Source of the DNA: Candidatus Vogelbacteria bacterium
GTDB taxonomy: Bacteria; Patescibacteriota; Minisyncoccia; Phycocordibacterales; XYD1-FULL-46-19
DNA length: 64,000 bases
Assembly: GCA_903878275.1 (NCBI GenBank)
Contig: CAIRHC010000007.1
Span: forward strand, 8,727 to 72,726
Direction of reading: 5' to 3'
Shown here: one piece after another, positions 2,037 through 34,231 of the stretch
Layout: every line of letters begins with the position of its first letter
Position numbering within the stretch: position 1 is the stretch's first letter
Notes under the pieces: model-generated
Seen by the model: only the letters and a program-made list of their open reading frames with translations
Told to the model about the DNA's origin: nothing
Database searches by the model: none
Translations under genes and position numbers: made by a program

Positions 2037-2107
2037 TTTAGTGGTAGAACACGACCTTGCCAAGGTTGAGACGGGAGTCCGATTCTCCCTACCCGCACAA
2101 AAGACTT
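2037..2107 (+). tRNA. tRNA-Gly (anticodon GCC)
   Basis: Acceptor GCGGGTA/TACCCGC, anticodon stem CGACC/GGTTG with loop TTGCCAA, T-arm GGGAG-TCCGATT-CTCCC; no trailer module, followed by a plain terminator. Confidence 0.8.
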
Positions 2108-2134
2108 GTTTCATAGAATCAAGAAAAGAAAAAA

Positions 2135-2160
2135 GGACGGCGTTTGCCGTCCTTTTTTTG
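2135..2160 (+). terminator. Rho-independent terminator after the tRNA cluster
   Basis: GGACGGCG-TTT-GCCGTCC hairpin followed by a T7 run. Confidence 0.7.
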
Positions 2161-2419
2161 GGTCGTTTAGTCACTTTTAAACCTTAAAAAAACCAAAAAC
2201 TGTGGATAAACCTGTGTCCAATGGGGATAAGAGACGGCTTTTAACTTCTTTGGTTGTCCTTTGATTCGTCCGTTGCCTTTTAAAATATGGCTTAAAATAA
2301 CGTTATTCTGTAATTTTGACCAGAAATAAGGGTTTTTCACCCCGAAAGTGTTTCTTAAGAAACACTTTCGGGGCATTTTTCAGAAAAATGTCTAAAAATA
2401 GACAAAGAATGTCCGGTTT

Positions 2420-2893
2420 GTGCTAAAATTAAATTGTTTAAATATCTCAAAAATAATGTTTGGTAATTCTTCAAAAACAGACAATCGAACCGAAAAACAA
2501 ATTGTCGGTGCGAAAGGGGAGCAACTCGCTTGCGATTACTTAATAAAAAATGGTTATCGAATACTAAAACGAAATTATTGGAAACCGCAGGGCGAGATCG
2601 ATATCGTGGCTCAAAAGGGGAGCATTCTTTATTTTATCGAAGTAAAAACCGTTTCTTCGACACCGGAATTTGTCAAAATGTTGTCTGAAAATAGGGGAAT
2701 GTTTGATAATTATCAGCCTGAAGACAACATTCACCCTTGGAAAATAAAAAGATTATCGAGAGTTATTGAAATTTTCCTGTCCGAAAACCACATTGATGAC
2801 GATCAGGACTGGCAAGTCGATGCCATTTGCGTGTACTTAGAAAAGGGGAGCGACAAAATGCTGAAAATCGAGTATCTGGAAGATATTATGTAA
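2420..2893 (+). CDS. YraN-family (UPF0102) predicted PD-(D/E)xK endonuclease with C-terminal extension; true start probably the ATG at 2456
   Basis: GEQLACDYLIKNGYRILKRNYWKPQGEIDIVAQKGSILYFIEVKT matches the YraN signature (GE.LA..YL...GY.IL.RN.R...GEIDLIA......VFVEVK). Confidence 0.75.
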   Translation: MLKLNCLNISKIMFGNSSKTDNRTEKQIVGAKGEQLACDYLIKNGYRILKRNYWKPQGEIDIVAQKGSILYFIEVKTVSSTPEFVKMLSENRGMFDNYQPEDNIHPWKIKRLSRVIEIFLSENHIDDDQDWQVDAICVYLEKGSDKMLKIEYLEDIM

Positions 2894-2947
2894 AAAATTA
2901 AAGGGGCAGGATACTTTTTGTATCTGCCCCTAAACCTTAAACCATTT

Positions 2948-4102
2948 TTACTCTCCTTTCTGCCGGAAGTTCCAGCAACCTTCGGTGTCGACGAAACCGT
3001 CGCGACACAGTTGTTCATTTGATAACTCCTTGGCACGACGACCAAGGCATGAGTTGCACTTGCCTTCGGCGAAGTTGGCACACTTTGTGCCACACTTTCC
3101 ACCATAACACCGAGAACGGACAATCCGCATCTCGGTCGACTCCCAAGCTTGGTCGAGAGTCTTGGTTTTTACACTTCCTAATTTCACCTCCTCTGCCCCA
3201 ATGCAAGGGCGGACATCACCGTACTGTGATATGTACATATGGTGCATGTATCTATCGCAGACGGTACCGACATAGCTCTGGGATAACTCCCAGCTTTGAC
3301 CGAACTCATCTTTGTCGATTTGTTGGAGCTCAAGAAGCGCCACTTTGATTCCCTCGCCGGGGATTTTCAAGTGACAACTTTGAGCACGTCCCACATCAAG
3401 GACGGAGTCGCAGTCAAAGATAATATTATTCTTGCGACAGAAGCGCAAAACTTCTGCCACGTCATTGACGTTTGACGGACCATCAGGCTCGTCCGACGCC
3501 ATTATTGAAGTCACGAGTGCCAACCGGCTTTCGCGACCAAATTTTCTGGCAATCTCATCCTCTGGGGAATTGAAGCCAGCGTTAATCAGTGCTTGAAGGG
3601 TGGCGTTTCTTTTTGCGCCGTAACCTTCAATGTTGCGTCCGTGAGCTGGGTCGCTCACGAACTTGTCTTGCTCTTCCGGGTCGAGTGTGTTGCCCTTGAG
3701 CATTAGCTCGACCGGCAGTTTTTTTAACTTGGCGATAAGTTCCTCTGTCAGGAACTCGCCGGTTGTGAATACCGTGACAAACATTCCCAACTCGGTTGCC
3801 CGAGTCAAGAACCACATTGTGAGCTCGAGGTTCCGTTCAATGAACGGTTCCCCAGCCCCGGGGATACCAAGAGAATCGACACCGATACTCTCGGCTTCGG
3901 CCAGAAGGCGATTGTAGTCGTCTTTTGACAACAAATCGTCTGGCCTGTTTGGCTTTCCTCCTCTGGCGTAGCAGTATGTGCACGCCAAGTTGCAGAAGCC
4001 GGGCAACTCAACCCACAGACTCTGTAGTCTGCCGGTATTTGCACGGCGGAGGCCGTGCTGCACTGCCGTATTCTTCATTTTTTTACTCCTTTTAATTTTC
4101 AA
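2948..4102 (-). CDS. Radical SAM protein with C-terminal Cys-rich SPASM/twitch-like domain
   Basis: CNLACTYCYA (CxxxCxxC) near the N-terminus; C-terminal cysteine cluster CYGGKCGTKCANFAEGKCNSCLG...C...C; RBS AAAGGAG 8 nt before the ATG. Confidence 0.8.
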   Translation of the reverse strand: MKIKRSKKMKNTAVQHGLRRANTGRLQSLWVELPGFCNLACTYCYARGGKPNRPDDLLSKDDYNRLLAEAESIGVDSLGIPGAGEPFIERNLELTMWFLTRATELGMFVTVFTTGEFLTEELIAKLKKLPVELMLKGNTLDPEEQDKFVSDPAHGRNIEGYGAKRNATLQALINAGFNSPEDEIARKFGRESRLALVTSIMASDEPDGPSNVNDVAEVLRFCRKNNIIFDCDSVLDVGRAQSCHLKIPGEGIKVALLELQQIDKDEFGQSWELSQSYVGTVCDRYMHHMYISQYGDVRPCIGAEEVKLGSVKTKTLDQAWESTEMRIVRSRCYGGKCGTKCANFAEGKCNSCLGRRAKELSNEQLCRDGFVDTEGCWNFRQKGE

Positions 4103-21116: not shown

Positions 21117-21247
21117 AGATTATGTTTGTTAAAAAGTGATTATAATTTGATAATAAATAATGGCTGTATCATAGCATATTTTCATAAATTGGCTAGGAAG
21201 TAATACTTCTTGTTTATTTTTGGTTATACGAATGGTAAAATTAAAAA

Positions 21248-21640
21248 ATGGAACAAAAATTTGATTTGTGGAATGAAATAAAGAAAAAAATTGACAGCGA
21301 AGACAATCTCACCGAACGATTTCCAAAAGAAGGTGAGGTCTGGATGAGCTCGTTGGGAAAAAATGTCGGTTTTGAACAAAATGGTTCCAATGACAACTTT
21401 TCTCGTCCCGTTTTGATAATAAAAAAGTTTAATAATCAGATGTTCTGGACTATTCCATTGTCTACCAAAAAGAAAGCCTTTGATTTTTACCACAACTATA
21501 CCGATCCTAGCGGAGAGAAGGTGTCAGCAATCTTGGCTCAACTGAAGTTGTCAAGTGTTAAAAGATTAAAAAGAAAAATTTATGATTTACCAAGCCAGCA
21601 ACTCCCAGAAATTAAAGAAAAATTGAAAAAATTTCTCTAA
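21248..21640 (+). CDS. MazF/PemK/EndoA-family endoribonuclease toxin homolog with about 25-aa N-terminal extension; no cognate antitoxin gene
   Basis: GEVWMSSLGKNVGFEQNGSNDNFSRPVLIIKK...IPLSTKK...AQLKLSSVKRLKRKIYDLPSQQLPEIKEKLKKFL aligns with B. subtilis EndoA ([28 protein letters not shown]...ITAQ...EQIRTIDKQRLTDKITHLDDEMMDKVDEAL); paralog at 31212. Confidence 0.65.
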   Translation: MEQKFDLWNEIKKKIDSEDNLTERFPKEGEVWMSSLGKNVGFEQNGSNDNFSRPVLIIKKFNNQMFWTIPLSTKKKAFDFYHNYTDPSGEKVSAILAQLKLSSVKRLKRKIYDLPSQQLPEIKEKLKKFL

Positions 21641-21682
21641 AATTCGAAACCCCGCCAATTGTGGCGGGGTTTCTCGGAGCCT
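21641..21682 (+). terminator. Terminator AAACCCCGCC-AATT-GTGGCGGGGTTTCTCGGAG; the same motif family recurs at 33346-33386
   Basis: Hairpin plus T-run; near-identical framework (AAACCCC...GGGGTTTCTCGGAG) at 33346-33386. Confidence 0.6.
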
Positions 21683-21733
21683 TACGGCACTTTATATTCA
21701 AAGAATATCAATTATAAAGGAAAAGTCAAGTTT

Positions 21734-22909
21734 TTACACTGGCTCCCCATCAATGACTTCCGCAATTTCTTCACCTTTTTCTTCAATCGCCTCGCCTTCT
21801 GGCGTGCTGATATCAATTTTCCAGCCGGTCAATTTAGCAGCGAGGCGAGCATTTTGACCACCTTTGCCGACGGCGAGCGAAAATTGATCGGGGCTGACCG
21901 AAATTTGAGCCTCGTGATTTTCTTCGTCTAATTCAATACTCAAAACTTTGGCTGGTGAGAGAGCATTGCTGATGAAAGTTTTGGCATCGTCTGACCATTC
22001 GGTAATATCAATTTTTTCACCACCCAATTCGCTGATGACGGTCGAAACACGAGCGCCTTTTTGTCCGACACAAGAACCAACCGGGTCAATGCTGGGATTG
22101 TTGGAAGCGACGGCAATCTTGGTACGGGCGCCGGCCTCGCGGGCGATAGATTTTATTTCTACAATACCGCTGGCAATTTCTGGGGCTTCAGTTTCAAAAA
22201 GCTTGGCAATAAATTTCGGATGCGAACGAGACAGTCTCAAATTTATGCCACGTGGCGTTTCTTCCACTTGATACAAATAAGCGCGGATTCTCTCACCTTG
22301 GCGATAAAATTCGCCAGCGATCTGATCTTCGCGTAAAATAATCCCAATTGCCCGTCCCAAATCGACAAAGACATTCCCGCGGTCAATTTTTTGCACCGTG
22401 CCATTCATAATTTGCCCTTCTTTTTCTTTGTATTCTTCGAGCGTGGTCTCTTTTTCGGCTTCACGGATACGCTGAATGATCACTTGTTTGGCAGTTTGGG
22501 CGGCAATTCGTCCGTAATCGTCTTGGGTGTCGAGTGGAAAAATAATTTCATCATCCACCTGCGAGTCTTTTTTCATCTTTCGAGCGTCTTCGACGGTCAT
22601 ATGGTGCTCGTCATTAAAGCGCGGCCGAAGATCTTTTTCCTCGCCATCTTCTTCGTTTTCGTCCTCATTCTCCAATTCCTCCGGCATTTTGACGGTTGTC
22701 TCGTCGGCAACAATCTTGATTTGGCTAAAATCTACCTTTCCGCTGTCAACATCAAAATGCGCCCGAATAATCTGACCTTTTTTGCCGTAGTCTTTTTTGT
22801 AAGCGGCGACCAAAGCATCTTCGATCGCTTCGATAATTCGCTGTCTTGGAATGTGTTTTTCTTCCTCAAGCTGTTCCAAACCAGCTTTTAGGGCTTTTAA
22901 ATCCATCAT
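21734..22909 (-). CDS. nusA: Transcription termination/antitermination factor NusA (start moved to MMDLKAL at 22909)
   Basis: N-terminal LEQLEEEKHIPRQRIIEAIEDALVAAYKK, an S1 domain, two KH domains (GSCVGQKGARVSTVISELGGEKIDI); the ORF-track N-terminal extension overlaps a 40-bp palindrome and is unlikely to be coding. Confidence 0.9.
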   Translation of the reverse strand: MMDLKALKAGLEQLEEEKHIPRQRIIEAIEDALVAAYKKDYGKKGQIIRAHFDVDSGKVDFSQIKIVADETTVKMPEELENEDENEEDGEEKDLRPRFNDEHHMTVEDARKMKKDSQVDDEIIFPLDTQDDYGRIAAQTAKQVIIQRIREAEKETTLEEYKEKEGQIMNGTVQKIDRGNVFVDLGRAIGIILREDQIAGEFYRQGERIRAYLYQVEETPRGINLRLSRSHPKFIAKLFETEAPEIASGIVEIKSIAREAGARTKIAVASNNPSIDPVGSCVGQKGARVSTVISELGGEKIDITEWSDDAKTFISNALSPAKVLSIELDEENHEAQISVSPDQFSLAVGKGGQNARLAAKLTGWKIDISTPEGEAIEEKGEEIAEVIDGEPV

Positions 22910-22921
22910 AATTTTGCTTGG

Positions 22922-22961
22922 GCGCCCGGTTTTTCTTGAAAATTCAAGAAAAACCGGGCGC
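22922..22961. promoter_or_regulatory. Perfect 18-bp-arm palindrome immediately upstream of nusA
   Basis: GCGCCCGGTTTTTCTTGA-AAATT-TCAAGAAAAACCGGGCGC; 13 nt upstream of the proposed nusA start. Confidence 0.5.
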
Positions 22962-23291
22962 ATCCTATTTTATTAATTAATAATAGTGTCTATTTAAAAA
23001 AATGACCCGGTTGCAGTGAGCAATCAGGATTAAATACATGGTAAACTTTGAAAGTGAATTTGTCAATTTGGTTAATAAAAAAATTTTTTAAAAATACTCG
23101 GAATTTTTGCTTGCAAAAATTCCGAGTATTTCCTTTTCCAAAAAGTTATCAACAGTTTTAAAGAAATTTATTTTCGGTGCTGTCAATTTTATTGTATAAT
23201 AAAAACAAACTAAAAAGCGTTCTGCGAAATCTTTTTTTGTGTAATAAAATTATTATTAATAAATAACATAAAGCTAAAACATTCCTTTGGA

Positions 23292-23669
23292 ATGTTCGCT
23301 AAAAAAATTATGGATCAATTAGCTCCTTCGGTTCCATCCGAAAATGGGACAAAAAAAATCACTATTATTAGTGTCGTGGTTATTGTGTTACTTCTGGTCG
23401 TTGCTTTTGTACTTCTTTCAACTGGTGGTAATCAATCAGCTCCGGGTATCACTACTGGTGGTGCTCAAAAGATGACCGATGCCCAGCGTCAAGCGATTAT
23501 GGATTCATTAGCCAAGTCCGCCGCGACCGCGCCAAAAATGACCGACAAAGAACGCACCGCCATTATGGACTCACTGGCCAAGTCCGCTGCAACTGCGCCA
23601 AAAATGACCGACGCCGAACGTCAAGCCATTATGGATTCACTCGCCAAGTCCGCTGCCTCGGCTCAATAA
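23292..23669 (+). CDS. Small N-terminally anchored protein with three tandem 22-aa repeats (KMTD.[QE]R.AIMDSLAKSAA.AP)
   Basis: TM helix ITIISVVVIVLLLVVAFVLL, then three 66-bp tandem repeats (23469-23666) that differ mostly at synonymous positions. Confidence 0.6.
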   Translation: MFAKKIMDQLAPSVPSENGTKKITIISVVVIVLLLVVAFVLLSTGGNQSAPGITTGGAQKMTDAQRQAIMDSLAKSAATAPKMTDKERTAIMDSLAKSAATAPKMTDAERQAIMDSLAKSAASAQ

Positions 23670-23767
23670 ATATTATAAATAAACCCGCCGAAATTTTTCC
23701 CAAAAAAATTTCGGCGGCCAATCATCCCAAACATTAAAAACTAATCATTAAACATTAACCAACAACT

Positions 23768-26700
23768 ATGTCAAAATATCAAAAACTTATCCCAACCCTA
23801 AAAATGCTTCTCTTGGTCGTGGCCTTGCTGGCTAGTAGTACGGTGGCTCTGGCTGACTACTCTGCACCGACAGACTCGCCACCAACCTGTAATCCAAATA
23901 CTCCGGGCTGTTTGGTTCCGATAAATGTTGGGACAAGTTCGGCAAGCTCACAAGAAAAGAAGGGATTGTTGAGTCTTGGTGTTTTGAGTTTGATAAGTGG
24001 TTACGTTGATACAACACTGGAAGCTGCAAAAAATATGGTCGCAACGATTGTTTCTGATACCACCTCTTTGAATATTTTTGGTAGAGGCACTTTTCCTAAT
24101 CGAGTAACAAAGGTTTGGGACAACCTTTGGGTTACTGGCACTGCCTCTTCGACAAATGTCGTAACCACAAATCTCTATGCAACAAGCACGTACGCCACTC
24201 ACTATTATTGTGCCGATGGTGGTACAACTTGTGGAATAGGTGGTACCGCTGGCGTAAAAACAATAACTGGTAATACTGGTATTACCGCATCCTCTCCTGA
24301 TTCGTCTGGTAATGTCAATTTGACAAACACTGGAATCGTCGGAATAGAACCTGGTAATGGTATCGAAGTCTCCTCAAAAGATTCTAACGGTAAAGTGACC
24401 ATAACAAACAAAAATCCGAATGCTGGTGTTTCTCAAATAACTAGCACGGGTGGTACGGTGAAAATTACCCCAACCGATGGTGGGGGGAAAGGGATTGTTA
24501 ATCTTGAGGTTGATCCTACTAAAATCGTTACCGGAGTTTCTGGCTTAAAGAAAAGTGGTAGCATAACCTTGACTGGAACTGAAACTGACGGTGTGTACAC
24601 TGGCGAAGTCACGATCGGAGGCGGAGGTCCCGGCGAATCTGTCTGGGTTCCAAACTATAATGATCCTGATCAACAGGGGCATATTGGTGTTAATTATCCG
24701 GCAGGTGCTGTCGGCATCGGTGAACATAGCCCAAATCACCAACTAGAGTTGGGAACCAATTTTACTGGTTCCACAGCTGCGCAGGACGAGTTGTTCGGCG
24801 ATATGATGGCCTCTTTTCTCGTGCTTAATTATTTTGAGACCAACCCGATAAGTAGTGTTGCTTCGAGCCGTGTAATAAATGCTCTCTATTCTGTCAAAAG
24901 AGCTGGTACAGATGGAAATACTCCACCATATAAACAAACTGATCTATATTTTAACGAAAACAAAGTTGCCACGAATGAAAATATAAATAATATCATTCAG
25001 GAATGTATCAATGCTGGCAGTTGTTCAAGTTTTGGCGACAATCTATGGTCAGTTTCAACCGACGCCAACGGTAAAAAGACAATGGCTCCGAACGGTAATC
25101 CCGATATTATAAGTCTCGGCACTGTAAATACTGGTGAATTAGGTGCTACCGACATTAAAACTATCGGCGGTGGCTTAGGCAATATTACCGCTGGACGTTA
25201 TGTTTATGCCAATCAAGGACTTTACCTTGGAAAACCGGATCCGAGTGTGCTTGGACAAAGCTCTGTCAGTCAGCTTATTGGTGATGAAAGGATTCTAAAG
25301 TGGGAAGATAGTCCGGTTTTGACTTTAAAAAACTATGCTGATTATATTACCAATTTGGGCGATAACTCTTGGATTGTTGGAGATGGTACTATTTCTCTAA
25401 AAACTCCAGCAAATAAAGTTAACATCGACTCAAAAGACATCACTATCGGTAAAATGACAGCTGACAACGTTTCCGATGGCACAGTCACTGTTCTTAGCAA
25501 TCTTGTAACAAAGAATATAGACACACCTAATGATATTACTGCTGGGAACATCAATGCTGTTTACGATGTTAAAGCAAACAGAGTTATAACTGGCCAAGAT
25601 CTTCAACTTGGTCTCGCCAACTCGATCATCCGTCAACAAAAAATTGGTGACACTGACGCTTCAGCTTTGACATTCTTAACTGGCGGACAAGCTGCCGCCA
25701 ACATTTATTCTGGCGGTCTATCTGTCGCCACTCAATACACCGCGGCGTCAATTCCTCCAAACAAAGGTGCTTATATCGAAGGTTCTGTCGGCATCGGCAC
25801 ACAGCCAGCTACCGATATGAAACTCGACGTTGTTGGTAATATCAAAGCCTCGGATAAAGTATTAGCTTCAAATCTATGTACCGTAGATGGGGCAAATTGT
25901 AAATCAACCGGAGATATTATAAACAATTTCGGCGGCACCAACGTCTGGGAGACTTCTTCTTATCCTAATGCTGTAACTGGTCCAAACATCCAAGCTGAAT
26001 ATTCTGATGCTCGAGCTGGAAATACTGGTGTTGTCGCGAAGAATATGAACGCTCTGGGTTCTTCGGGCTTTGGAGCTATTAAGGACTATGATCCCACCAA
26101 GCAGGCACCAGGAGCGCCTTATGTCGGAGATCCTTTCCGAGATTCGATCCGCTTTATGGCTTATGGAAGTAGTATTAGCGAGGGTTTGGATTCGATAAAA
26201 AAGAGCGGTGCGGAAATAATGTCTGGTGTAAATATGACCGGCGGTTTGTCTATTACTGCTGGTGCGCCTGCCGGTGATATTCGTTTCTATGCCGGCGGAC
26301 GTAAAGCTGAAAACAGGATAATGACTCTGACGAAGGCTAATGGTAAACAATATATTCAGGCTCCTTCTGCGACCTTGGGAGTAAAGGATATTACAGCAGA
26401 CTCTGTCGGCATCGGCACAGCTGCTCCCCGTGGCAGTCTAGACATCAACAAAGGTTCAGCAATGTGGTCCAGCTACAACTATGGCAAACAGCTTGTTCTT
26501 GATGCTGGTACCGGACAAAACACCGGTATGGCAATTGTCGGAGACGATGCAAAAAGCAAAAACTGGGGAATTACCGCTGGCTCTGACGGTGAGAGCTTGA
26601 CCATAAGTGCAATGCCTAAATTAGACGATTTTAGTACACCACCCGATGGTTTTATGAGTTTTAATAGAGCAACCGGTGTCTCTTTCAACAAAAATGTCGG

Positions 26701-29700
26701 TGTTAATGGGAATATTCAAGGCATTGGTGTCTTGGCTGATAATGTCACAGCAAATTCTGTACAACTAGCCGGCAATGGGGGTGGCGACGGTCTTACCTCC
26801 GATTCCAATAATAAACTTCTCTGGAATAATACTCCGGTTGGAGGCAATAATACTTTTATTGGTGGTGATAGCTCCTGGGCTTCGACTACTGATTTCTTAT
26901 ATCCAAATAGTGATCAATTCAGTAAAAACGTCGGCATCGGCACCCAATCTCCGTCCGAAAAACTAGAAGTTGCTGGAAATATTAAAGCCACTGGGAATAT
27001 CAGTGCTCAAGAAGGTTATTTCAATAAACTAGCCACATTTGGTGCCGGAGCTGTTACTTTTGGAAAACATGTTGTTAGTAGTATCTTGCAAGTCAACGGT
27101 GGTGTCGATCTGGCTGTTCACACAGGCAACGTCGGCATCGGGTTGCCTAAGATTATGCAGGCTGGAGACTCTCCCGGTAACCCCTCCGCTCCTGGCATAC
27201 CAACCGCTAAGTTAGATGTCGGCGGGGATATCAAGTCAAATTCTCTGATTTTAAATTCAAAAAATAGCGCTACTGACAACAGTGGAGCTCTTGAGGTTGT
27301 AAGGATTGGTGGAGTGCCAACTGTCCCACCTTCAGACGCAGTGACGGTTTCCAGTTGTCAGTCCTGGAGGAATGGTTACCCCACAAACTTTTTTACCGCT
27401 TACGATGATGTACAAGGTTGTAATGCCGCTGTTGATGCTGGCGATTTGGTTTTCCCTCATGAGATCATTCCTGCCTCTGGCGGGACTCCAGCTTCGGGCG
27501 GATCGGTCAGTCTCTATTTCGACGGCAAACCAGTCGGCGACAATGCGTGGACCAAAAACGGTAACGATATCACCAACAGTAATACTGGCAATGTTAATAT
27601 AAATTCAAATAACATAACGATCGGACGAATGAAAAGTGATGGCTATACCCCCGACGGTACAACACTCATCTTGAGTAATCTCGAAACAAAAAATCTTTTT
27701 TCCTATGGAGGTATTTCAAACCTAGGCAATATTACTACTCAAGGCAACGTCGGTATCGTCAATAATATCACTGGATATGTTCCCCGTGGCAGTCTAGACA
27801 TCAACAAAGGTTCAGCAATGTGGTCTGGCTCCAACTACGGCAAACAACTTGTTCTAGATGCTGGTGTCGGACAAAACACCGGTATGGCAATCGTCGGAGA
27901 TAATGGGGCTGGCAAAAACTGGGGAATTACTACCACTGGTAGTGGTGACAACCTGGTTATAAGTGCAATGCCTGGCTTGGAATATAGCGATACTGGTCAT
28001 CAACCTGATAATTTTATGAATTTTAGTAGAACAACCGGTGTATCCTTCAACAAAAATGTCAGTATCACTGGCAATGTAAATGCCAGCGGAAATATCACCG
28101 GAAACGATGTCGCCGCAAATACTCTGAATGTCCCGACAATCACGACGACCAACCTTATCGCTTCTGGTTCAGTCATCTCTCCTGTTGTCGCCTTAACTAA
28201 TAATTCTGCCAACCCCGTGTATAAAAGTCTCACTATGGACAATAGTGGAAAGCTGTTGTTTGGCGGCAAACCAGTCGGCGATAACAATTGGACAAAAGAT
28301 GCCCGGGAAAATATTAGTAACAGTAATACTGGCCTAGTCTCTGTCGGTCCAGTTAAAGATTATCTTTCGAGTTCGAACATTAAATTTGCTGTTAATGGTG
28401 GTAGTATGGTGGTAAGTGATGATCTGTATGTTGGTAGTGGAGGTTCTGACCCGAAGGGTGAGCTTATTTTGCAAGGGAAGAAGGGGATTCAGTTTTTAAA
28501 TTCGCTCGAAATTAGTGATACTGCCGCGCCTAATTCTTTGTACACAAAAAACTCCGGGTCGGACCTATACTACAATGGCCTACAGATAAATACCCCACCG
28601 TCTTGGAATCCAAGTGGCAATAATATCTCATATGCTGATACCGGCAACGTCGGCATCGGCACCAATGCTCCGCTTGGAAAATTAGATATTACTGGTGGAG
28701 CATCTTCTATCCCCCCTTCTTCAGGAGTTGCCCCGGCGACATCGCTTGCTCTTCGTTTGCACGACAACTCTAATGTCGTTTTAGATTTTGGTCTGAACAA
28801 CAGTAACGGTTCGTGGTTGCAAACAGCCAACAAAACAGACTTGAATGCAAACTATCCATTATCATTAAATCCAAACGGTGGAGGCGTCATTATTGGAAAA
28901 AACCCAATAAATGGTACCATCACTGCTGGATTGACATTGGATGTAGCCGGAGCCATAAAAGGTACCGATGTTTTTGCAACTCACTTGAATGTTGCTAATA
29001 ATGATTTTAATCCACTCGAACCAGCTATCAAGGCTGCTTCATATGTCTCTGGTCGATATGGTGGAGGATATGTTATGCGGGATAATACTAATAATTATGC
29101 GGGTATGTGGACAGACAACAACGGAAATACATTGAAGTTGTCCGCTGGCGGGTCGGCAGATAGTGGTAAATTGAATACGACCAACATAATGTCCTTAAAC
29201 TACAATGGAGATGTTGATGCGACAAATTTCTGTATAACCAGAGGTACCAAACGGAAATGTCTTTCTGACCTATTATTCACAAATTCTTCAATAAAGTTGG
29301 ATTCTCTTGGTGTAGATAAGAATACTGTTTCTTTTAAGATATCTTGGGGAAAGGTAGTCGTCTCGGATACTGTTAACTGGCGAGTTGCATACAAAGACAA
29401 CACCGGGGTGGAGAAAGAAAAATACAACATACCAATCACTGAGGCTGCCGGTGAGTACTCTGGAAGTTTTGAAGTTACTGGTGCGACCGGTAACTTTGTG
29501 TTGACAGCGTCTCTTGTTTCAGGTGGGGGTATTGATGATAGTGTTTTTGCACAATTTTATATTACCCCACCACCAACACCTAGTGTTAACATTGTGTATG
29601 CTGCCTCTGAAAAATGCCCTGCACCTATTACAGATCCAAATTGTTTCTTGCCTAAGTTTCGGTTTGACTACGCAAACATTCCTGATCACTATAAAGCGAT

Positions 29701-30898
29701 TGTCAACACTACTGGTCAATGGTTGTTTCCTGCGCCAAAACCAGGCGAGGGTGCAACTCACGGACCAGTCACCGGGGAAGGGATAGACGTTGTTGGCACC
29801 AACGTATTCAATAATGATGGTTTATCTCAACCTACTTACAGTGGCGTAGGTACGAAAGAGATGACGGTTCAAATAGTATCAGAATATGACATGGAAAATG
29901 TTCTCGTGAGTGACACGGTGCAATACAATTCTGACGGTACGATAAATGTCGATAAAGGAAGAATGGTATTTGAAGCTAACGGTATCCCGAAACAAGATGC
30001 TAACGGAAATGTGACTTGGGGCGTAGGTCTCTTTAATGACGGTGATTTTGACTGGAGTAGTGGTTACAAAATTGTTTGGTCTGAAAGCCGCAATCCTACT
30101 CTTTGGTACACTTTGGCCACTCTTGACAATCTATCTCTTACAAAAGGTGCTTCGGCGAGCTTGTATGACTACAGTGCTGGTCAAAGTACTTTCAATCCAT
30201 ACACCTCCCAGGGTCTCGTTGGTGGTCTTAGTTATGACATGAGTTTTAAAATTGTGAACGGTTCTGGGGTGGCAGTGTCACCTGTCGTGAGAGAGAACGT
30301 GACTATTTTAAAGAAAGATGGCGCTTGCGGTCCTAGTAATACTGCTTCAGGAGTTGTGCCAAATCACGTGTATTCAGTAGCTGGCTATAATAATGAAATT
30401 CGAGCAGATTCTGATTCCTGTTCAGTCGGTACTGTGGCGAGCACATTTACTCTCAATCCTGGTGGTGAACCTGGTTGGACTTGTGGCGGCTCTGGTAGTG
30501 GAACAATCAACCCGTCTCCTGACTGTAAGGGTTACTTTGCTCCGACTGCAAAGAGAGCCCCAACATATACTGTCCCATGGAGGCATACTAATAATGGCTA
30601 TTATGTAAATGTATATGATAATCAACAAATCGACCATGTAAATACTGCCACAGGGGGAGGGCTACCTTGTGTAATACGAGCATTATCAGAATTAGGGAGT
30701 GATCAGATATCTTGGATTGCTGCTAGACTTAACGCCTATGGTGCGAATAGCGGCGGGGCGCTAGAGTTAAAAATAGCTGAACCGGCATACGGGATGAGCA
30801 AGGTAACACTGGCATGGCTGTGTATGGGTGTGGACGAGAACTGGTATGAGGTTCCTAATGCTGGGCAGGTTTATAACCCTCCATTGACCACAGATTAG
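23768..30898 (+). CDS. Giant secreted surface protein (2376 aa), Gly/Thr/Asn-rich with recurring (N/S)VGIGT...KLDV motifs and internal ~100-aa duplications
   Basis: Signal peptide MSKYQKLIPTLKMLLLVVALLASSTVALA; at least 7 copies of the (V/I)GIGT motif; a duplicated block PRGSLDINKGSAMWS..NYGKQLVLDAG.GQNTGMAIVGD...NWGIT...ISAMP......F.R.TGVSFNKNV at about 26420-26720 and 27780-28090; Cys-containing C-terminal region; minus-strand ORFs inside it are antisense artefacts. Confidence 0.85.
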   Translation: MSKYQKLIPTLKMLLLVVALLASSTVALADYSAPTDSPPTCNPNTPGCLVPINVGTSSASSQEKKGLLSLGVLSLISGYVDTTLEAAKNMVATIVSDTTSLNIFGRGTFPNRVTKVWDNLWVTGTASSTNVVTTNLYATSTYATHYYCADGGTTCGIGGTAGVKTITGNTGITASSPDSSGNVNLTNTGIVGIEPGNGIEVSSKDSNGKVTITNKNPNAGVSQITSTGGTVKITPTDGGGKGIVNLEVDPTKIVTGVSGLKKSGSITLTGTETDGVYTGEVTIGGGGPGESVWVPNYNDPDQQGHIGVNYPAGAVGIGEHSPNHQLELGTNFTGSTAAQDELFGDMMASFLVLNYFETNPISSVASSRVINALYSVKRAGTDGNTPPYKQTDLYFNENKVATNENINNIIQECINAGSCSSFGDNLWSVSTDANGKKTMAPNGNPDIISLGTVNTGELGATDIKTIGGGLGNITAGRYVYANQGLYLGKPDPSVLGQSSVSQLIGDERILKWEDSPVLTLKNYADYITNLGDNSWIVGDGTISLKTPANKVNIDSKDITIGKMTADNVSDGTVTVLSNLVTKNIDTPNDITAGNINAVYDVKANRVITGQDLQLGLANSIIRQQKIGDTDASALTFLTGGQAAANIYSGGLSVATQYTAASIPPNKGAYIEGSVGIGTQPATDMKLDVVGNIKASDKVLASNLCTVDGANCKSTGDIINNFGGTNVWETSSYPNAVTGPNIQAEYSDARAGNTGVVAKNMNALGSSGFGAIKDYDPTKQAPGAPYVGDPFRDSIRFMAYGSSISEGLDSIKKSGAEIMSGVNMTGGLSITAGAPAGDIRFYAGGRKAENRIMTLTKANGKQYIQAPSATLGVKDITADSVGIGTAAPRGSLDINKGSAMWSSYNYGKQLVLDAGTGQNTGMAIVGDDAKSKNWGITAGSDGESLTISAMPKLDDFSTPPDGFMSFNRATGVSFNKNVGVNGNIQGIGVLADNVTANSVQLAGNGGGDGLTSDSNNKLLWNNTPVGGNNTFIGGDSSWASTTDFLYPNSDQFSKNVGIGTQSPSEKLEVAGNIKATGNISAQEGYFNKLATFGAGAVTFGKHVVSSILQVNGGVDLAVHTGNVGIGLPKIMQAGDSPGNPSAPGIPTAKLDVGGDIKSNSLILNSKNSATDNSGALEVVRIGGVPTVPPSDAVTVSSCQSWRNGYPTNFFTAYDDVQGCNAAVDAGDLVFPHEIIPASGGTPASGGSVSLYFDGKPVGDNAWTKNGNDITNSNTGNVNINSNNITIGRMKSDGYTPDGTTLILSNLETKNLFSYGGISNLGNITTQGNVGIVNNITGYVPRGSLDINKGSAMWSGSNYGKQLVLDAGVGQNTGMAIVGDNGAGKNWGITTTGSGDNLVISAMPGLEYSDTGHQPDNFMNFSRTTGVSFNKNVSITGNVNASGNITGNDVAANTLNVPTITTTNLIASGSVISPVVALTNNSANPVYKSLTMDNSGKLLFGGKPVGDNNWTKDARENISNSNTGLVSVGPVKDYLSSSNIKFAVNGGSMVVSDDLYVGSGGSDPKGELILQGKKGIQFLNSLEISDTAAPNSLYTKNSGSDLYYNGLQINTPPSWNPSGNNISYADTGNVGIGTNAPLGKLDITGGASSIPPSSGVAPATSLALRLHDNSNVVLDFGLNNSNGSWLQTANKTDLNANYPLSLNPNGGGVIIGKNPINGTITAGLTLDVAGAIKGTDVFATHLNVANNDFNPLEPAIKAASYVSGRYGGGYVMRDNTNNYAGMWTDNNGNTLKLSAGGSADSGKLNTTNIMSLNYNGDVDATNFCITRGTKRKCLSDLLFTNSSIKLDSLGVDKNTVSFKISWGKVVVSDTVNWRVAYKDNTGVEKEKYNIPITEAAGEYSGSFEVTGATGNFVLTASLVSGGGIDDSVFAQFYITPPPTPSVNIVYAASEKCPAPITDPNCFLPKFRFDYANIPDHYKAIVNTTGQWLFPAPKPGEGATHGPVTGEGIDVVGTNVFNNDGLSQPTYSGVGTKEMTVQIVSEYDMENVLVSDTVQYNSDGTINVDKGRMVFEANGIPKQDANGNVTWGVGLFNDGDFDWSSGYKIVWSESRNPTLWYTLATLDNLSLTKGASASLYDYSAGQSTFNPYTSQGLVGGLSYDMSFKIVNGSGVAVSPVVRENVTILKKDGACGPSNTASGVVPNHVYSVAGYNNEIRADSDSCSVGTVASTFTLNPGGEPGWTCGGSGSGTINPSPDCKGYFAPTAKRAPTYTVPWRHTNNGYYVNVYDNQQIDHVNTATGGGLPCVIRALSELGSDQISWIAARLNAYGANSGGALELKIAEPAYGMSKVTLAWLCMGVDENWYEVPNAGQVYNPPLTTD

Positions 30899-30934
30899 TA
30901 GCCGGAGGAGGCGAAGCCTTCGCTCTGGGTGCCA

Positions 30935-31150
30935 CAATAGGGGGAGGTCGAACCTCACCTCAAGGTGCCAAATAGGGGGAGGTCGAACCTCACCTCAAGG
31001 TGCCAAATGTGTTGTAATATAATTTGTTAACGAGGCGGGAAAAATGTGTTGTAATTTGCTGACGATAGGATAATTAAAAAAGAAAAAACCACCCCAGGAA
31101 TTTCGCCTAGCAAAATTCCTGGGGTGGTTTAGTTTTCCGGTTTTTGTTTT
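30935..31150 (+). repeat. Cassette-punctuating repeat unit 1 (with 34-nt tandem duplication and terminator hairpin)
   Basis: AATAGGGGGAGGTCGAACCTCACCTCAAGGTGCC occurs twice in tandem, followed by AAATGTGTTGTAAT...GCTGACGATAGGATAAT and then the hairpin CCACCCCAGGAATTT-CGCCTAGCA-AAATTCCTGGGGTGG + TTTAG. Confidence 0.7.
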
Positions 31151-31191
31151 TTCTCTTTTTTTTACAAAAGACTTCGTTTGGAAATAATGTT

Positions 31192-31202
31192 TGTGATATA
31201 AT
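31192..31202 (+). promoter_or_regulatory. Extended -10 promoter (TGTGATATAAT) 9 nt upstream of the ATG, giving a near-leaderless mRNA
   Basis: The same 60-nt promoter segment (TTTTACA[A/G]GAGACTTCGTTTGGAAATAATGTTTGTG[A/C]TATAAT) precedes the NYN fragment, with its -10 at 33044-33054. Confidence 0.5.
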
Positions 31203-31211
31203 CTTCTCAAG

Positions 31212-31601
31212 ATGATAAAAAGATTTTTGGAGTGGCTGGAGTTAAAAGTAAAACTTAATGATTTAGAAAGCGAGCCACCAATCGTTCATGAAAGAGAGCT
31301 TTGGTGGATTAGTTTTGGTGAAAATATTGGTTCGGAAATTGACGGGAAAAGTCAATTGTTTTCTCGTCCCGGTTTAATTCTCAAGAAACTATCCCGTAGT
31401 TTCTATCTTGTTGCTCCGACGACATCTCAAATAAAAACCGGTTCTTGGTATTCAACGATAAAACACAAGGGTAAAGAGATGTCTGTTTGTTTACATCAGG
31501 TCAGAACGGTTGATTGTCGACGTTTATCTAGCTTAATGGGGCAAGTTGACGAAAAAGATTTTACCGTAATCAAAGAGTCATTTTTCAAATTATATCGGTA
31601 A
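31212..31601 (+). CDS. MazF/PemK/EndoA-family toxin homolog (paralog of 21248-21640) with N-terminal extension; no antitoxin
   Basis: RELWWISFGENIGSEIDGKSQLFSRPGLILKK...VAPTTSQ...HQVRTVDCRRLSSLMGQVDEKDFTVIKESF aligns with EndoA (RPVLVIQ...ITAQ...EQIRTIDKQRL...LDDEMMDKVDEAL). Confidence 0.7.
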   Translation: MIKRFLEWLELKVKLNDLESEPPIVHERELWWISFGENIGSEIDGKSQLFSRPGLILKKLSRSFYLVAPTTSQIKTGSWYSTIKHKGKEMSVCLHQVRTVDCRRLSSLMGQVDEKDFTVIKESFFKLYR

Positions 31602-31716
31602 AGTTACTTGAAAAAAATATTCCTCACCTTTTTATGGGTGAGGCCGTGGCTAAATGCCGAATGTATTTTTAGTATAGACCTTATTTAAAAAAAGTCAAAT
31701 TTTACTGTTTTAACTC

Positions 31717-31845
31717 CTCCGAAAGTCGAGGTCGAACCTCATATTCGGGAAAAATGTGTTGTAATTTGTCGATGGTAGGCTAATCAAAAAAGAAAAAACC
31801 ACCCAAGGAATTTCGCTAGACGAAATTCCTTGGGTGGAGTTGTTT
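31717..31845 (+). repeat. Cassette-punctuating repeat unit 2
   Basis: GAGGTCGAACCTCA...AAATGTGTTGTAATTTGTCGATGGTAGGCTAATCAAAAAAGAAAAAA + hairpin CCACCCAAGGAATTTCG-CTAGA-CGAAATTCCTTGGGTGG; the compensatory CCAGG>CAAGG / CCTGG>CTTGG change preserves the stem. Confidence 0.7.
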
Positions 31846-31902
31846 TTTGGTCAGTTTTATCAACTTTATAAACTTACAGTATTTTGACAAACTTTATAAA
31901 GT

Positions 31903-32844
31903 TTGCTAATATCAGTTTTAATGACGATTAAAGAAAAATTACAAATTATCAAACAAACTACCGGTTTAACTCAAACCAAACTGGCAGAGCGCTTAGGCGT
32001 GTCTTTTGTCACCTTTAATAGTTGGTGGACGGGGAAAACCTTGCCTCGTTTGAAAAAGCAGGTTCTTATTGGCGAGTTGTTTCTAACCTTAACTGGTCAG
32101 AAAATTATCCCGACCGAACAACTGCTCGCGAAGAAGCAAGCTCTACAAAAAAAATCAGCTGAACACAAGAGTGTTATTTCTGAAATATTAAATAATCCAG
32201 ATCTTCGAGATAGTTTCCTGTTAAAACTTACTTACAATAGTAATAAAATTGAAGGGAGCACTTTGTCTGAATCAGAGACTGCCGCGATTCTTTTTGATAA
32301 CACCGCTTTACCAGACAAAAGTTTAATCGAACAATTAGAAGCCAAAAATCACCAGACTGCTCTTAATTATCTTTTTGATTATATCGCAAAAAATGATGAG
32401 TTGACTGAAAAATTGGTGTTAAAACTTCACAGTATTTTAATGAATGGCATTCGTGATGATGCTGGGGTTTATCGTAACCATGGCGTCAGAATTCTTGGGG
32501 TTGATTTGCCGACCGCTAATTATTTGAAAGTCCCCGAATTGATTCCCGGTATAATTAGGAGGGCGAATAGTAAATCTAAAGATGTCGTGGCTTTGTCGGC
32601 AGAAATTCATAGTCGGTTTGAACAAATCCACCCTTTTTCTGACGGTAACGGTCGGATCGGACGGATTTTGATGACCGCGATGTTGCTTCGGGCAAACATG
32701 GCGCCAGCGATAGTTAAACAGGAAGACAAACAGTTTTATTATGCTTGTCTTTATGGGGCTCAAGTCAAAGAAAACTATAACCAGTTAGAAGATTTTTTGT
32801 GTGATGCCATAACAAACGGTTTTAAAGTCTTGGAGCGAGATTAA
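31903..32844 (+). CDS. Fic/Doc-family protein (AMPylator) with N-terminal XRE-type HTH
   Basis: Fic motif HPFSDGNGRIGR; N-terminal LTQTKLAERLGVSFVTFNSWWTG helix-turn-helix; likely true start MTIKEK at 31921. Confidence 0.9.
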   Translation: MLISVLMTIKEKLQIIKQTTGLTQTKLAERLGVSFVTFNSWWTGKTLPRLKKQVLIGELFLTLTGQKIIPTEQLLAKKQALQKKSAEHKSVISEILNNPDLRDSFLLKLTYNSNKIEGSTLSESETAAILFDNTALPDKSLIEQLEAKNHQTALNYLFDYIAKNDELTEKLVLKLHSILMNGIRDDAGVYRNHGVRILGVDLPTANYLKVPELIPGIIRRANSKSKDVVALSAEIHSRFEQIHPFSDGNGRIGRILMTAMLLRANMAPAIVKQEDKQFYYACLYGAQVKENYNQLEDFLCDAITNGFKVLERD

Positions 32845-32846
32845 AC

Positions 32847-33000
32847 CGAAAGTCGCCGAAAGTCGAGGTCGAACCTCACCTCAAGGTGCCAAATGTGTTG
32901 TAATTTCCTGACGGTAGGATAATCAAAAACGAAAAAACCACCCCAGGAATTTCGCTTAGCGAAATTCCTGGGGTGGTTTTAGTCCTCTGGTTTTTATAAT
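32847..33000 (+). repeat. Cassette-punctuating repeat unit 3
   Basis: CGAAAGTCGAGGTCGAACCTCACCTCAAGGTGCCAAATGTGTTGTAATTTCCTGACGGTAGGATAATCAAAAACGAAAAAA + hairpin CCACCCCAGGAATTTCGC-TTAG-GCGAAATTCCTGGGGTGG + TTTTAG. Confidence 0.7.
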
Positions 33001-33061
33001 ATTTTTTCTTTTTTTACAGGAGACTTCGTTTGGAAATAATGTTTGTGCTATAATCAGAAAA

Positions 33062-33241
33062 ATGAAGAAAGAAAATAACTATGCCTTTATTGATAGTCAG
33101 AATTTGAATTTGGCAATTAGATATTTAGGGTGGGAATTGGATTTTGCTAAGTTTCGAATTTATCTAAAAGATTGTTTTGGCGTAGATAAAGCCTATCTTT
33201 TTATCGGTTTTGTAAACGACAATCAACCGCTTTATACTTAA
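33062..33241 (+). pseudogene. Truncated N-terminal fragment (59 aa) of an NYN-domain gene, paralogous to 12953-13477
   Basis: Own translation: MKKENNYAFIDSQNLNLAIRYLGWELDFAKFRIYLKDCFGVDKAYLFIGFVNDNQPLYT*. This matches the first ~55 aa of the full-length paralog (MKKENNLAFIDGQNLHLGTKLNNWVVDLYKFRIYLKDKYHVTEAYYFLGCV), then a stop. It is driven by the duplicated extended -10 promoter at 33044-33054. Confidence 0.6.
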
Positions 33242-33345
33242 GAAAAAGAGGCATAACCTAGGGACGAAACCCTTCGGGCAGCCTCTTTATCGTGATAGTT
33301 TAATAATAGCAAATATGGCTGATGTGTCAACGTAAGCTTAGTTAA

Positions 33346-33386
33346 AACATCGAAACCCCACATTGCTGTGGGGTTTCTCGGAGGCC
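33346..33386 (+). terminator. Terminator AAACCCCACATTGCTGTGGGGTTTCTCGGAGGCC, same family as 21641-21682
   Basis: Hairpin + T-run; shares the AAACCCC...GGGGTTTCTCGGAG framework. Confidence 0.5.
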
Positions 33387-33491
33387 GAAGCCATAATACT
33401 TATTATAATATACCACTTATTTTTTTAAGCAAGGGCGGGGGCGGTTTAGTTTCCGGTTTTTCTGATCTTTTCTAGCCACATTTCTTGTTTT

Positions 33492-33920
33492 ATGCTAAAA
33501 TTACAGTATATGGTTATCGATGTGGAAAAAAGAGATGAAATCATTGAATACTGGCGGGAAGGAGCGGGAGAAGCGCTTGAAAACGCTGAATATTTAATGG
33601 AGAAGAAAAGTTTTTCCTATGCTTTATTTTTTGCTCATTTAGCGACAGAAAAAATTCTTAAATCTCTGGTGATTAAGAAAACCAACGACCATGCTCCTCG
33701 GACTCATGATTTACTCTATTTGGTCGGGTTGTCGGGGGTTGATTTATCAAAAAGCCAAGAGAATCTGTTGTTAGAAATTGGTAAATTCAATATTGAAGGT
33801 CGTTATCCAGAAGAAAAACAAGAAGCTTCAAAAAAAATTAACCAAGCAATGGTAGAAAATTATCTAATTAAAATTAAAGAATTATATTTATGGTTATCGT
33901 CGGAGCAGAAAGAAAAATAA
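33492..33920 (+). CDS. HEPN-domain protein (toxin component of a HEPN/MNT module)
   Basis: All-helical; ALFFAHLATEKILKSLVIKK...HDLLYLV resembles HEPN helices; immediately followed by and overlapping an MNT nucleotidyltransferase gene. Confidence 0.6.
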   Translation: MLKLQYMVIDVEKRDEIIEYWREGAGEALENAEYLMEKKSFSYALFFAHLATEKILKSLVIKKTNDHAPRTHDLLYLVGLSGVDLSKSQENLLLEIGKFNIEGRYPEEKQEASKKINQAMVENYLIKIKELYLWLSSEQKEK

Positions 33921-34231
33921 TTAGTAGCGAGGAAATTAAAAAAATCCTGGCTCTTTTTAAAGAAAAGTTGGTGGCAGAAAAAGTGCCTTTTGCGAGCATT
34001 TATCTTTTTGGTTCTTATGCGACAGGCGAGGCTGACCGTGATAGTGATATTGATATTGCGGTGGTGATTTCGCCAAAGGCGAAAATTGACGAGGAGCTCG
34101 TTGACCATTGGCGTTGGTTAGCTAAAGAGATAAATGTTAAGACTGAAGTGCATATTATCAAAACTGAAGATTTTGATAATCGCTATCTATCTTTACCCGC
34201 TTATATTAAAAAAGACGGGATTGTTGTTTAG
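33890..34231 (+). CDS. Minimal nucleotidyltransferase (MNT) antitoxin-type protein
   Basis: GS-x9-DxD polymerase-beta-type motif LFGSYATGEADRDSDIDIAVV; overlaps the HEPN gene by 31 nt. Confidence 0.8.
   Translation: MVIVGAERKIISSEEIKKILALFKEKLVAEKVPFASIYLFGSYATGEADRDSDIDIAVVISPKAKIDEELVDHWRWLAKEINVKTEVHIIKTEDFDNRYLSLPAYIKKDGIVV

Follow-up and report, generated by a model that had tools for sequence, protein, structure and literature searches.

MazF-type toxin genes and their products

The window analyzed here, a stretch of 64,000 nucleotides (nt) from a Candidatus Vogelbacteria bacterium (contig CAIRHC010000007.1, positions 8,727 to 72,726 of the forward strand), harbors two genes for toxins of the MazF type, each followed by a convergent gene for a small RNA (sRNA) that is probably its antitoxin. 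The MazF-1 gene (21248..21640, plus strand) encodes a protein of 130 amino acids (aa) composed of an N-terminal helix and the MazF core, and the MazF-2 gene (31212..31601, plus strand) encodes a protein of 129 aa, as deduced from the open reading frames (ORFs) and their translations. MazF is the textbook type II toxin, and the database label for such genes is "type II PemK/MazF family toxin." Both proteins matched the Pfam family PemK_toxin (PF02452, gathering score 23.1), MazF-1 with 34.1 bits (E 3e-8) and MazF-2 with 36.5 bits (E 6e-9). A preliminary description of this DNA had assigned the two ORFs to the MazF/PemK fold; the assignment was upheld by Pfam, by structure modeling with Foldseek comparison and by hhalign, and profile searches did not place either protein in a non-MazF family.

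Alignment with hhalign placed residues 25–127 on residues 2–108 of Bacillus subtilis MazF (BsMazF), leaving ∼24 additional residues at the N-terminus, in agreement with the extension of ∼25 aa recognized earlier. The AlphaFold2 (AF2) model of MazF-1, with a mean predicted local distance difference test (pLDDT) value of 79, showed a helix at residues 2–17 followed by the MazF barrel, in which a flexible loop (residues 37–50) is the counterpart of the β1–β2 loop. The best Foldseek matches in PDB were MazF-mt1, SaMazF, and BsMazF/YdcE (probability 1.00, template modeling score 0.6–0.7), and the type III toxin CptN (4rmo) was found among the matches of lower rank. A sequence search of PDB with the toxins returned nothing informative. 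The Arg of the F-S-R-P motif (R53/R52) is invariant and aligned to R25 of BsMazF, while S72-T73 of MazF-1 and T70-T71 of MazF-2 aligned to T48; R25 and T48 are the catalytic residues of BsMazF. Owing to the Pfam matches, the fold match, and the retention of the catalytic residues, MazF-1 and MazF-2 are probably active RNases of the MazF type, lengthened by ∼24 residues.

The extension carries the motif F-x-x-W-(N)-E-x-K-K, which was found to be kept in both toxin subfamilies as well as in distant relatives; judged by this conservation, it is not an annotation artefact. The basic N-terminal helix is specific to this clade and is absent from canonical MazF. The two proteins of the window share 29% identity over their full length including the N-terminus, which bears out the earlier estimate of ∼30% and the view that they did not arise by recent duplication. 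They are old paralogs belonging to different subfamilies. For the MazF-2-type toxin, 155 full-length homologs were retrieved. A profile built from both families matched 3081 clusters (50% identity) at E up to 1e-3, and 181 of these matched at E up to 1e-30.

Each toxin gene is preceded by an extended −10 element. That of toxin 1, TGGTAAAAT (21233..21241, plus strand), ends 6 nt upstream of the ATG, and a leaderless mRNA is therefore implied. That of toxin 2, TGATATAAT (31194..31202, plus strand), is placed inside the intergenic repeat unit that precedes the MazF-2 gene and ends 9 nt before the ATG, as expected from the preliminary description, in which this gene followed a promoter-bearing repeat unit. 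Another copy of the repeat, at 32993–33055, is 84% identical to the one bearing the toxin 2 promoter. The −10 hexamer was found to end 6–7 nt before the ATG in 39 of 73 MazF-1 loci, and on this sequence evidence, the toxin mRNAs appear to be leaderless in most loci.

Search for a protein antitoxin

No ORF of the MazE/PemI type was found in the window, and none is present upstream of either MazF gene, as had been stated before. The neighbors of the homologous genes vary, and no conserved neighbor gene was detected across the homologous loci. When all ORFs of 20–110 aa within 350 nt of 143 non-identical loci were clustered, no upstream cluster of small ORFs was obtained. The only recurrent small ORFs, found in ∼35% of the loci, overlap the RNA element described below; as antitoxin genes, they were rejected since their frame is broken by loop lengths that are not multiples of 3 and by the UAA within the GUAA loop. 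The description of the toxins as antitoxin-less thus holds with respect to protein antitoxins but not beyond them, as a convergent sRNA gene lies after each toxin. Likewise, of the small ORFs and antisense RNAs that had been proposed for a search upstream, no ORF cluster was obtained, but a convergent sRNA was found downstream.

The locus L004, also from Vogelbacteria, contains both kinds of arrangement. In its stretch 2338–3916, a canonical MazEF pair, made up of a 113-aa PemK without the extension and an 83-aa upstream gene, is adjoined by two MazF paralogs with the N-terminal extension, and each of the two has a separate variant of the sRNA. In L004, a third extended paralog goes with a third variant of the RNA. 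This locus offers a natural side-by-side contrast of two modes of control.

Convergent small RNA genes downstream of the toxin genes

Comparison of the flanks of the first few homologous loci revealed, in every locus, a conserved non-coding element 0–8 nt past the toxin stop codon. For each subfamily (MazF-1 type and MazF-2 type), 80 loci were fetched. On the strand complementary to the toxin gene, the element has the consensus 5′-UACAAAGUGCC-GAAA-GGCUCCGAGAAACCCCGCC-loop-GGCGGGGUUUCGAUUUU-3′ for the MazF-1 type (RNA-1) and 5′-UACAUUCGGC-AUUC-GCCGCGGCCCCGCC-loop-GGCGGGGAAUAU-3′ for the MazF-2 type (RNA-2). In both RNAs, the hairpin P1 is short and the hairpin P2 is long and GC-rich, and the predicted transcript has ∼50–57 nt.

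In the window, sRNA-1 (21638..21696, minus strand) scored 75.5 bits (E 1.7e-23) with the RNA-1 model R1, and its predicted fold has an energy of −28.1 kcal/mol (z −5.1). It is made up of a 5′ tail, P1 (21679–21688, with a GUAA loop), a GAG linker, P2 (21646–21673), and a U-rich tail that overlaps the complement of the toxin stop codon. Its putative promoter (21702..21729, minus strand), supported by an independent scan and by the family statistics, consists of TTGACT and TATTCT separated by 16 nt, with TG before the −10. Similarly, sRNA-2 (31610..31666, minus strand) scored 59.2 bits (E 1.2e-9) with the RNA-2 model R2 and showed a fold z-score of −4.6; it comprises a 5′-ACAUUC tail, P1 (31648–31658), P2 (31622–31643), and a AAUAUUUUUUU tail. 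Its putative promoter (31671..31698, minus strand; TTGACT, 16 nt, TATACT) was found by the independent scan with 10/12 matches and is again supported by the family statistics; the same scan called a terminator-like hairpin at 31643–31622.

Both RNA families showed strong covariation. In RNA-1 (69 sequences), 96.5% of the cells are paired and both sides change in 12 of the 15 pairs; in RNA-2 (66 sequences), the corresponding values are 94.9% and 10 of the 11 pairs, and none of the 500 shuffles equaled either result. The pairing collapsed once the partner columns were slid. While the stems covary, the unpaired tail, the linker, the class of the tetraloop, and a G.A motif are near-invariant.

The strand of the RNA, antisense to the toxin, is indicated by the class of the P1 loops, the wobble pairs of RNA-1, the fit of the G.A pairs, and the promoter. 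On the minus strand, the P1 loops of RNA-1 are GNRA (GAAA, GCAA, GUAA) or UUCG in 66 of 69 sequences by our own tally, and read on the opposite strand, they would be UUUC, UUGC, UUAC, or CGAA. RNA-1 contains 34 G-U pairs vs. 16 A-C mismatches. The invariant GAG and CGA (six nt) flanking P2 fit tandem G.A pairs on the minus strand only, and the P2 loops of RNA-2 are often GNRA on this strand. On the sRNA strand, TTGACA with at most one mismatch was present in 69 of 76 distinct loci of the MazF-1 type and in 58 of 62 of the MazF-2 type. The spacer is 16 nt in most of these promoters, and the −10 is TATACT or TATAAT, usually with TG before it. The −10 ends in a fixed register, 6–7 nt before the conserved A of the 5′-ACA. 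The ACA itself is invariant in RNA-2, while ∼10 of the 69 RNA-1 sequences, the window copy included, carry UAUAAAG.

A search of the window with Rfam 15, the pemK motif RF02913 included, gave no match at the gathering score; nothing relevant was found at the two loci at E up to 10 or in eight related loci at E up to 0.01. As a separate observation, DnaA-box-like 9-mers (TTATCCACA, at most one mismatch, either orientation) occur within ∼30 nt of the sRNA −35 in 20 of 62 MazF-2-type loci (from the set L093–L172), against a background of 0.03 per 80 nt and 3 of 75 MazF-1 loci; none is present at the window copy.

Coupling of the RNAs to the toxins and distribution

R1 matched at full length on the minus strand, immediately after the toxin, in 79 of the 80 MazF-1 loci, and R2 did so in 79 of the 80 MazF-2 loci, the sole exception in each set being a locus where the contig breaks off at the stop codon of the toxin. 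No R2 match was found in the MazF-1 loci. R1 gave three matches in the MazF-2 loci; the two of these that could be placed (L105, L111) lie away from the toxin gene. Hence, the coupling of each type of RNA to a single toxin subfamily is strict and specific, and this clade of toxins is obligately accompanied by a convergent sRNA gene that is conserved, structured, and transcribed from a promoter of its own. The toxin–RNA pair was found across many classes of Patescibacteria and also in one Saprospiraceae and one Ignavibacteriaceae metagenome-assembled genome (MAG).

The window also harbors a copy resembling sRNA-1 away from a toxin (33344..33405, minus strand; R1 44.1 bits, E 1.9e-12; fold z −3.9). 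The linker, P2, and 3′ tail are kept in this copy, P1 and the 5′ tail have diverged, and the copy has its own plausible promoter (TTGCTT, 16 nt, TATTAT). No MazF gene or remnant was detected near 33344–33405 with tblastn. The copy may act as an orphan antitoxin or against addiction, or it may be left over from a module that was lost. Further R1 matches were noted at L071 (767–823) and L105 (738–793).

Relatives in Campylobacterota and the pVir plasmid

A tblastn search against plasmids identified relatives on plasmids of Campylobacterota, including pVir of Campylobacter jejuni 81-176. Proteins of Helicobacter and Nitratiruptor aligned over 97–98% of the window MazF-1, and the product of pVir0047 (405 nt) showed 41% identity to it over residues 4–98, with the N-terminal F-D-x-W-N-E-x-K-K in common. 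No annotated antitoxin was found beside the Campylobacterota relatives, and all of them have hairpins and a reversed −10 just 3′ of the toxin. N-extended MazF relatives (34% identity, 95% coverage) were also observed in the CJIE4 prophages of C. jejuni and in phage PC10, the phage records being KF751793–KF751797, MZ047271, and MW373745.

On pVir (NC_008770), a minus-strand start near 31119 was predicted from the sequence before the published transcription start sites (TSSs) were checked. In dRNA-seq data, a TSS is reported at 31119 on the minus strand with a step height of 16164, compared with 28 for the toxin TSS, and the corresponding sRNA, CJpv3 (Dugar et al., 2013), extends from 31119 to 31043 (77 nt) in the gap between pVir0047 and pVir0048, is convergent, and was detected by Northern blotting (PMC3656092, Tables S5/S12). 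An sRNA is thus expressed at the equivalent position beside the C. jejuni pVir homolog. Its 3′ end lies 5 nt past the stop codon of pVir0047, outside the ORF, and it has a GC-rich terminal hairpin. According to two citing papers, an antisense sRNA, CjrA, was found to be a type I RNA antitoxin on pVir of strain 81-176 (Shen et al., 2016, Mol Microbiol 101:909, as cited there). The CjrA/CjpT pair probably corresponds to CJpv3/pVir0047, as pVir0047 is the sole annotated toxin on the plasmid.

Genomic surroundings of the modules

In the preliminary description, the two toxin genes bracketed a 9.6-kb insert made up of the giant-protein locus. The interval does hold a 125-aa repeat protein, which is the tandem-repeat protein of that description, and a 2376-aa protein; nusA (21734–22963, minus strand; NusA_N, S1, and KH domains), which had not been listed, also sits between the two MazF genes. 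The bracketing was not sustained as a functional arrangement: nusA lies inside the interval, the modules are self-contained, and the contexts of the homologs are unrelated (a hutH/hutU gap, a position after asparagine synthase, type IV pilus genes, NYN genes). Hence, the flanking of the giant-protein gene looks coincidental, a functional meaning being undemonstrated, and the two modules of the window are independent of each other. Of the context given for MazF-1, the gap to hppA was confirmed (131 nt), but hppA is divergent and not upstream on the same strand. The 125-aa ORF (23292–23669, plus strand) contains three tandem repeats of 66 nt (22 aa) and is positioned directly 5′ of the gene for the 2376-aa protein, in which no Pfam domain was found.

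The stretch downstream of MazF-2 is a toxin or defense island, composed of the MazF-2 module, a helix-turn-helix (HTH)-Fic gene (31903–32844), a 59-aa ORF (33062–33241), and an overlapping HEPN/nucleotidyltransferase pair (33492–34231), with the orphan R1 copy within it; the HTH-Fic gene and the HEPN/nucleotidyltransferase pair lie directly downstream of the MazF-2 module. An intergenic repeat unit of ∼120–220 nt (30944–31203, 31720–31873, and 32865–33055) separates MazF-2, HTH-Fic, and the 59-aa ORF like cassette boundaries. Its three parts are a hairpin (GAGGTCGAACCTC), a bidirectional terminator formed by a long hairpin (AAAACCACCCCAGGAATTTCGC...), and a promoter region, and it supplies the MazF-2 promoter and a bidirectional terminator. 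In L001 and L004, the toxin genes are flanked by other, different repeat units. The start of the 59-aa ORF resembles a NYN domain by eye, though without a Pfam match, and NYN fragments were seen upstream of the MazF homologs in L001 and L008. Located 3′ of this ORF is a convergent promoter (TTGACA 33325–33330, TATTAT 33303–33308) from which an RNA with a terminal hairpin and U-tract (33243–33288) would be made, the same layout as in the MazF modules. In L013, from a MAG labeled Saccharibacteria, a LOOT RNA (RF03000, 88 bits) is present at 2044–2165 (plus strand), ∼110 nt past the toxin–sRNA module.

Proposed mechanism and alternative explanations

Each MazF-like gene would form one half of a self-contained two-gene module of ∼0.55 kb. 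The toxin half would be a MazF-fold endoribonuclease with a basic N-terminal helix, and its own promoter would give an mRNA with little or no leader. The RNA half would be a structured sRNA of 50–57 nt. A strong sigma-70-type promoter would direct its transcription toward the toxin gene, up to a GC-rich hairpin immediately next to the stop codon of the toxin. In place of MazE, this sRNA would be the antitoxin and neutralize the toxin. Chiefly, the toxin dimer would bind the folded RNA directly, in the manner of type III systems, and the N-terminal helix would serve as an added RNA-binding part; base pairing of the type I kind, between the sRNA and the 3′ end of the toxin mRNA at the hairpin that both share, may contribute as well or may be the real route. 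The reading of these loci as toxin and convergent-sRNA modules in which the RNA is the antitoxin, acting mainly by direct binding, is given a probability of about 0.65. Direct binding is favored for three reasons: pairing in cis requires no conservation of sequence, yet the unpaired motifs are near-invariant; the module works across phyla, so that dependence on a host factor is not expected; and the basic helix, the only protein feature that sets the clade apart from MazE-controlled MazFs, is left unexplained by antisense action alone.

Several points weigh against this reading. We infer both the toxicity and its neutralization, and the contact between helix and RNA is conjecture throughout; the helix itself is only moderately confident in the AF2 model (pLDDT 56–70). 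The sRNAs of the window are predictions from the sequence. For RNA-2, the count of 14 G-U pairs vs. 30 A-C mismatches does not favor the minus strand, the A-C mismatches being mostly at the loop-closing pair. The equations CjpT = pVir0047 and CjrA = CJpv3 are probable rather than confirmed, and in the papers citing it, CjrA/CjpT is a type I (antisense) system, contrary to direct binding of the protein. Also, the RNA models from the candidate phyla radiation (CPR) gave no match on the Campylobacterota loci, which share the architecture with the CPR modules at undetectable sequence similarity.

The most serious competing explanation is a pure type I mechanism, in which the sRNA, as a cis antisense RNA, would pair with the 3′ end of the toxin mRNA or its read-through and cause decay or block, leaving the protein untouched. 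The convergent layout with a shared hairpin past the stop codon is the pattern of par/Fst, TxpA/RatA, and BsrG/SR4, the sRNA promoter on pVir is far stronger than that of the toxin, and the probable pVir homolog CjrA is cited as a type I antisense antitoxin. Yet, antisense pairing does not need sequence conservation, while near-invariance is seen in the nucleotides outside the stems, in the class of the loop (GNRA/UUCG), and in the G.A motif, and it provides no reason for a clade-specific basic N-terminal helix. The position of the pVir sRNA, which stops 5 nt past the stop codon without overlapping the ORF, also speaks against it, and no specific pairing site was identified inside the toxin ORF. 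Pairing in trans between the sRNA and the toxin ORF, evaluated by duplex folding, was rejected, as the energies equaled those of shuffled controls and the duplexes were incoherent; the shared hairpin is the sole certain overlap of sRNA and mRNA. A pure type I mechanism is accordingly considered rather unlikely.

The remaining explanations dispense with the RNA as an antitoxin. If the protein were a processing RNase without toxicity and the sRNA its dedicated substrate, cofactor, or guide, the strict coupling and the structured RNA would be accounted for, and the (U)ACA start of the RNAs, resembling MazF recognition sites, would fit as well. The occurrence on plasmids and prophages, at variable chromosomal sites, often in several paralogs per genome, and in toxin islands points instead to selfish toxin–antitoxin (TA) modules, and the ACA is not invariant in RNA-1, in view of the UAUAAAG variants noted above; this explanation is very improbable. 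Mimicry of a substrate by the 5′-ACA was set aside on the same ground, the C being U in ∼10 of 69 RNA-1 sequences, and is kept as speculation only. It had also been proposed that the extension is an intramolecular antitoxin or that the proteins are non-toxic RNases, in which case the downstream element would be a bidirectional terminator with an unrelated promoter. Although the extension is conserved and helical and no protein antitoxin is present, a mere terminator would not keep P1, the linker, and a promoter in fixed register in ∼160 loci, nor would it come in subfamily-specific versions. The catalytic Arg and Ser/Thr are retained, and homologs reside on plasmids and prophages like addiction modules. 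Taken jointly, these two proposals are highly improbable; an intramolecular antitoxin is not needed given the sRNA, and the extension may be better read as an adaptor for RNA. Finally, the element could act as DNA, i.e., as a recombination or attC-like site or the end of a mobile element moving the toxin cassette. The toxin genes do occur in cassette-like arrays split by repeat units, also in L001 and L004, and like attC sites, the element follows a gene at its 3′ end and forms an imperfect inverted repeat. However, GNRA and UUCG tetraloops interchange, G-U wobbles are tolerated, a promoter lies 6–7 nt from the conserved 5′ end, an abundant transcript arises from the homologous pVir site, and no match to the attC core RYYYAAC/GTTRRRY was seen by eye, which makes a DNA element extremely improbable.

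Significance of the modules

RNA-antitoxin systems are already known, and one member of the present family has probably been studied on pVir. Searches of the accessible literature and family libraries revealed neither a bona fide MazF with a clade-specific N-terminal helix as found here nor the two sRNA families supported by covariation, their association with the N-terminal extension, their 100% coupling to the toxins, and their wide spread in the CPR. The modules correct the annotation of these genes, which are labeled "type II" though they never occur with a protein antitoxin, and they add two well-supported RNA families that are missing from Rfam 15. Tiny CPR genomes would gain a compact, RNA-based control of toxins. 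The modules also provide a clean system for asking how a toxin fold changed from inhibition by a protein to inhibition by an RNA, for which the N-terminal helix is a candidate adaptation, and the sRNA models make "solo" toxins recognizable in metagenomes.

Comparison with known toxin–antitoxin systems

The toxin family, the fold, and the catalytic residues are shared with the canonical type II systems MazEF/PemIK. The modules differ from these in the absence of a MazE/PemI gene, in the extra N-terminal helix, and in the toxin's own promoter and leaderless mRNA. The pemK RNA motif lies upstream of pemK genes in Firmicutes and is likewise a conserved RNA associated with this family, though with a different position and strand. 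The motif (RF02913; Weinberg et al., 2017) was undetected at either locus.

With the type III systems ToxIN, CptIN, TenpIN, and AbiQ/antiQ, the modules have in common an endoribonuclease of MazF/Kid-like fold and a structured RNA antitoxin, the neutralization being putative here. The type III antitoxin is made of tandem repeats located upstream on the same strand, with a terminator between them and the toxin gene, and is processed by the toxin. In contrast, the RNA of the window modules is single-copy, has its own promoter, and is downstream and convergent. Membership in a known type III family was not indicated, as the NCBIfam CptIN model scored 13.9 bits vs. a cut-off of 90 and PADLOC gave no match. 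A 35-nt duplication at 30944–31018, 5′ of MazF-2, was considered as a type III-style repeat and rejected, as it belongs to the intergenic repeat unit, copies of which are likewise found ahead of the Fic gene and of the 59-aa ORF. The duplication is absent from the homologs, whose upstream regions are unrelated.

In the type I systems par/Fst (RNAI–RNAII), TxpA/RatA, and BsrG/SR4, toxin and RNA are convergent and meet at a shared hairpin after the toxin ORF. As in type I, a separate cis-encoded RNA is present opposite the toxin gene at the window loci, with a promoter, a structure, and a hairpin end on the minus strand. The type I toxins are small membrane peptides with poorly conserved RNAs, whereas the window toxins are soluble MazF-fold RNases of 129–130 aa and their RNAs are near-invariant at the unpaired positions. 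The closest counterpart is CjrA/CjpT of pVir, which, if it is the pVir0047/CJpv3 pair, shares the N-terminal helix and MazF core, the lack of a protein antitoxin, and the convergent sRNA. The pVir pair differs in that CJpv3 is 77 nt long with three hairpins and a sequence unlike the CPR RNAs, and the toxin mRNA has a 26-nt leader.

The modules are probably a little-recognized variant of RNA-antitoxin systems. Tentatively, they might even constitute a separate TA class that is neither type I, II, nor III, in which a MazF-fold toxin would grip, through its family-specific N-terminal helix, a single-copy, independently transcribed, structured sRNA and be neutralized by it. Such a class would be spread throughout Patescibacteria and carried on mobile elements of Bacteroidota, Ignavibacteriota, and Campylobacterota, and toxin-less copies such as that at 33344–33405 would serve as anti-addiction immunity genes.

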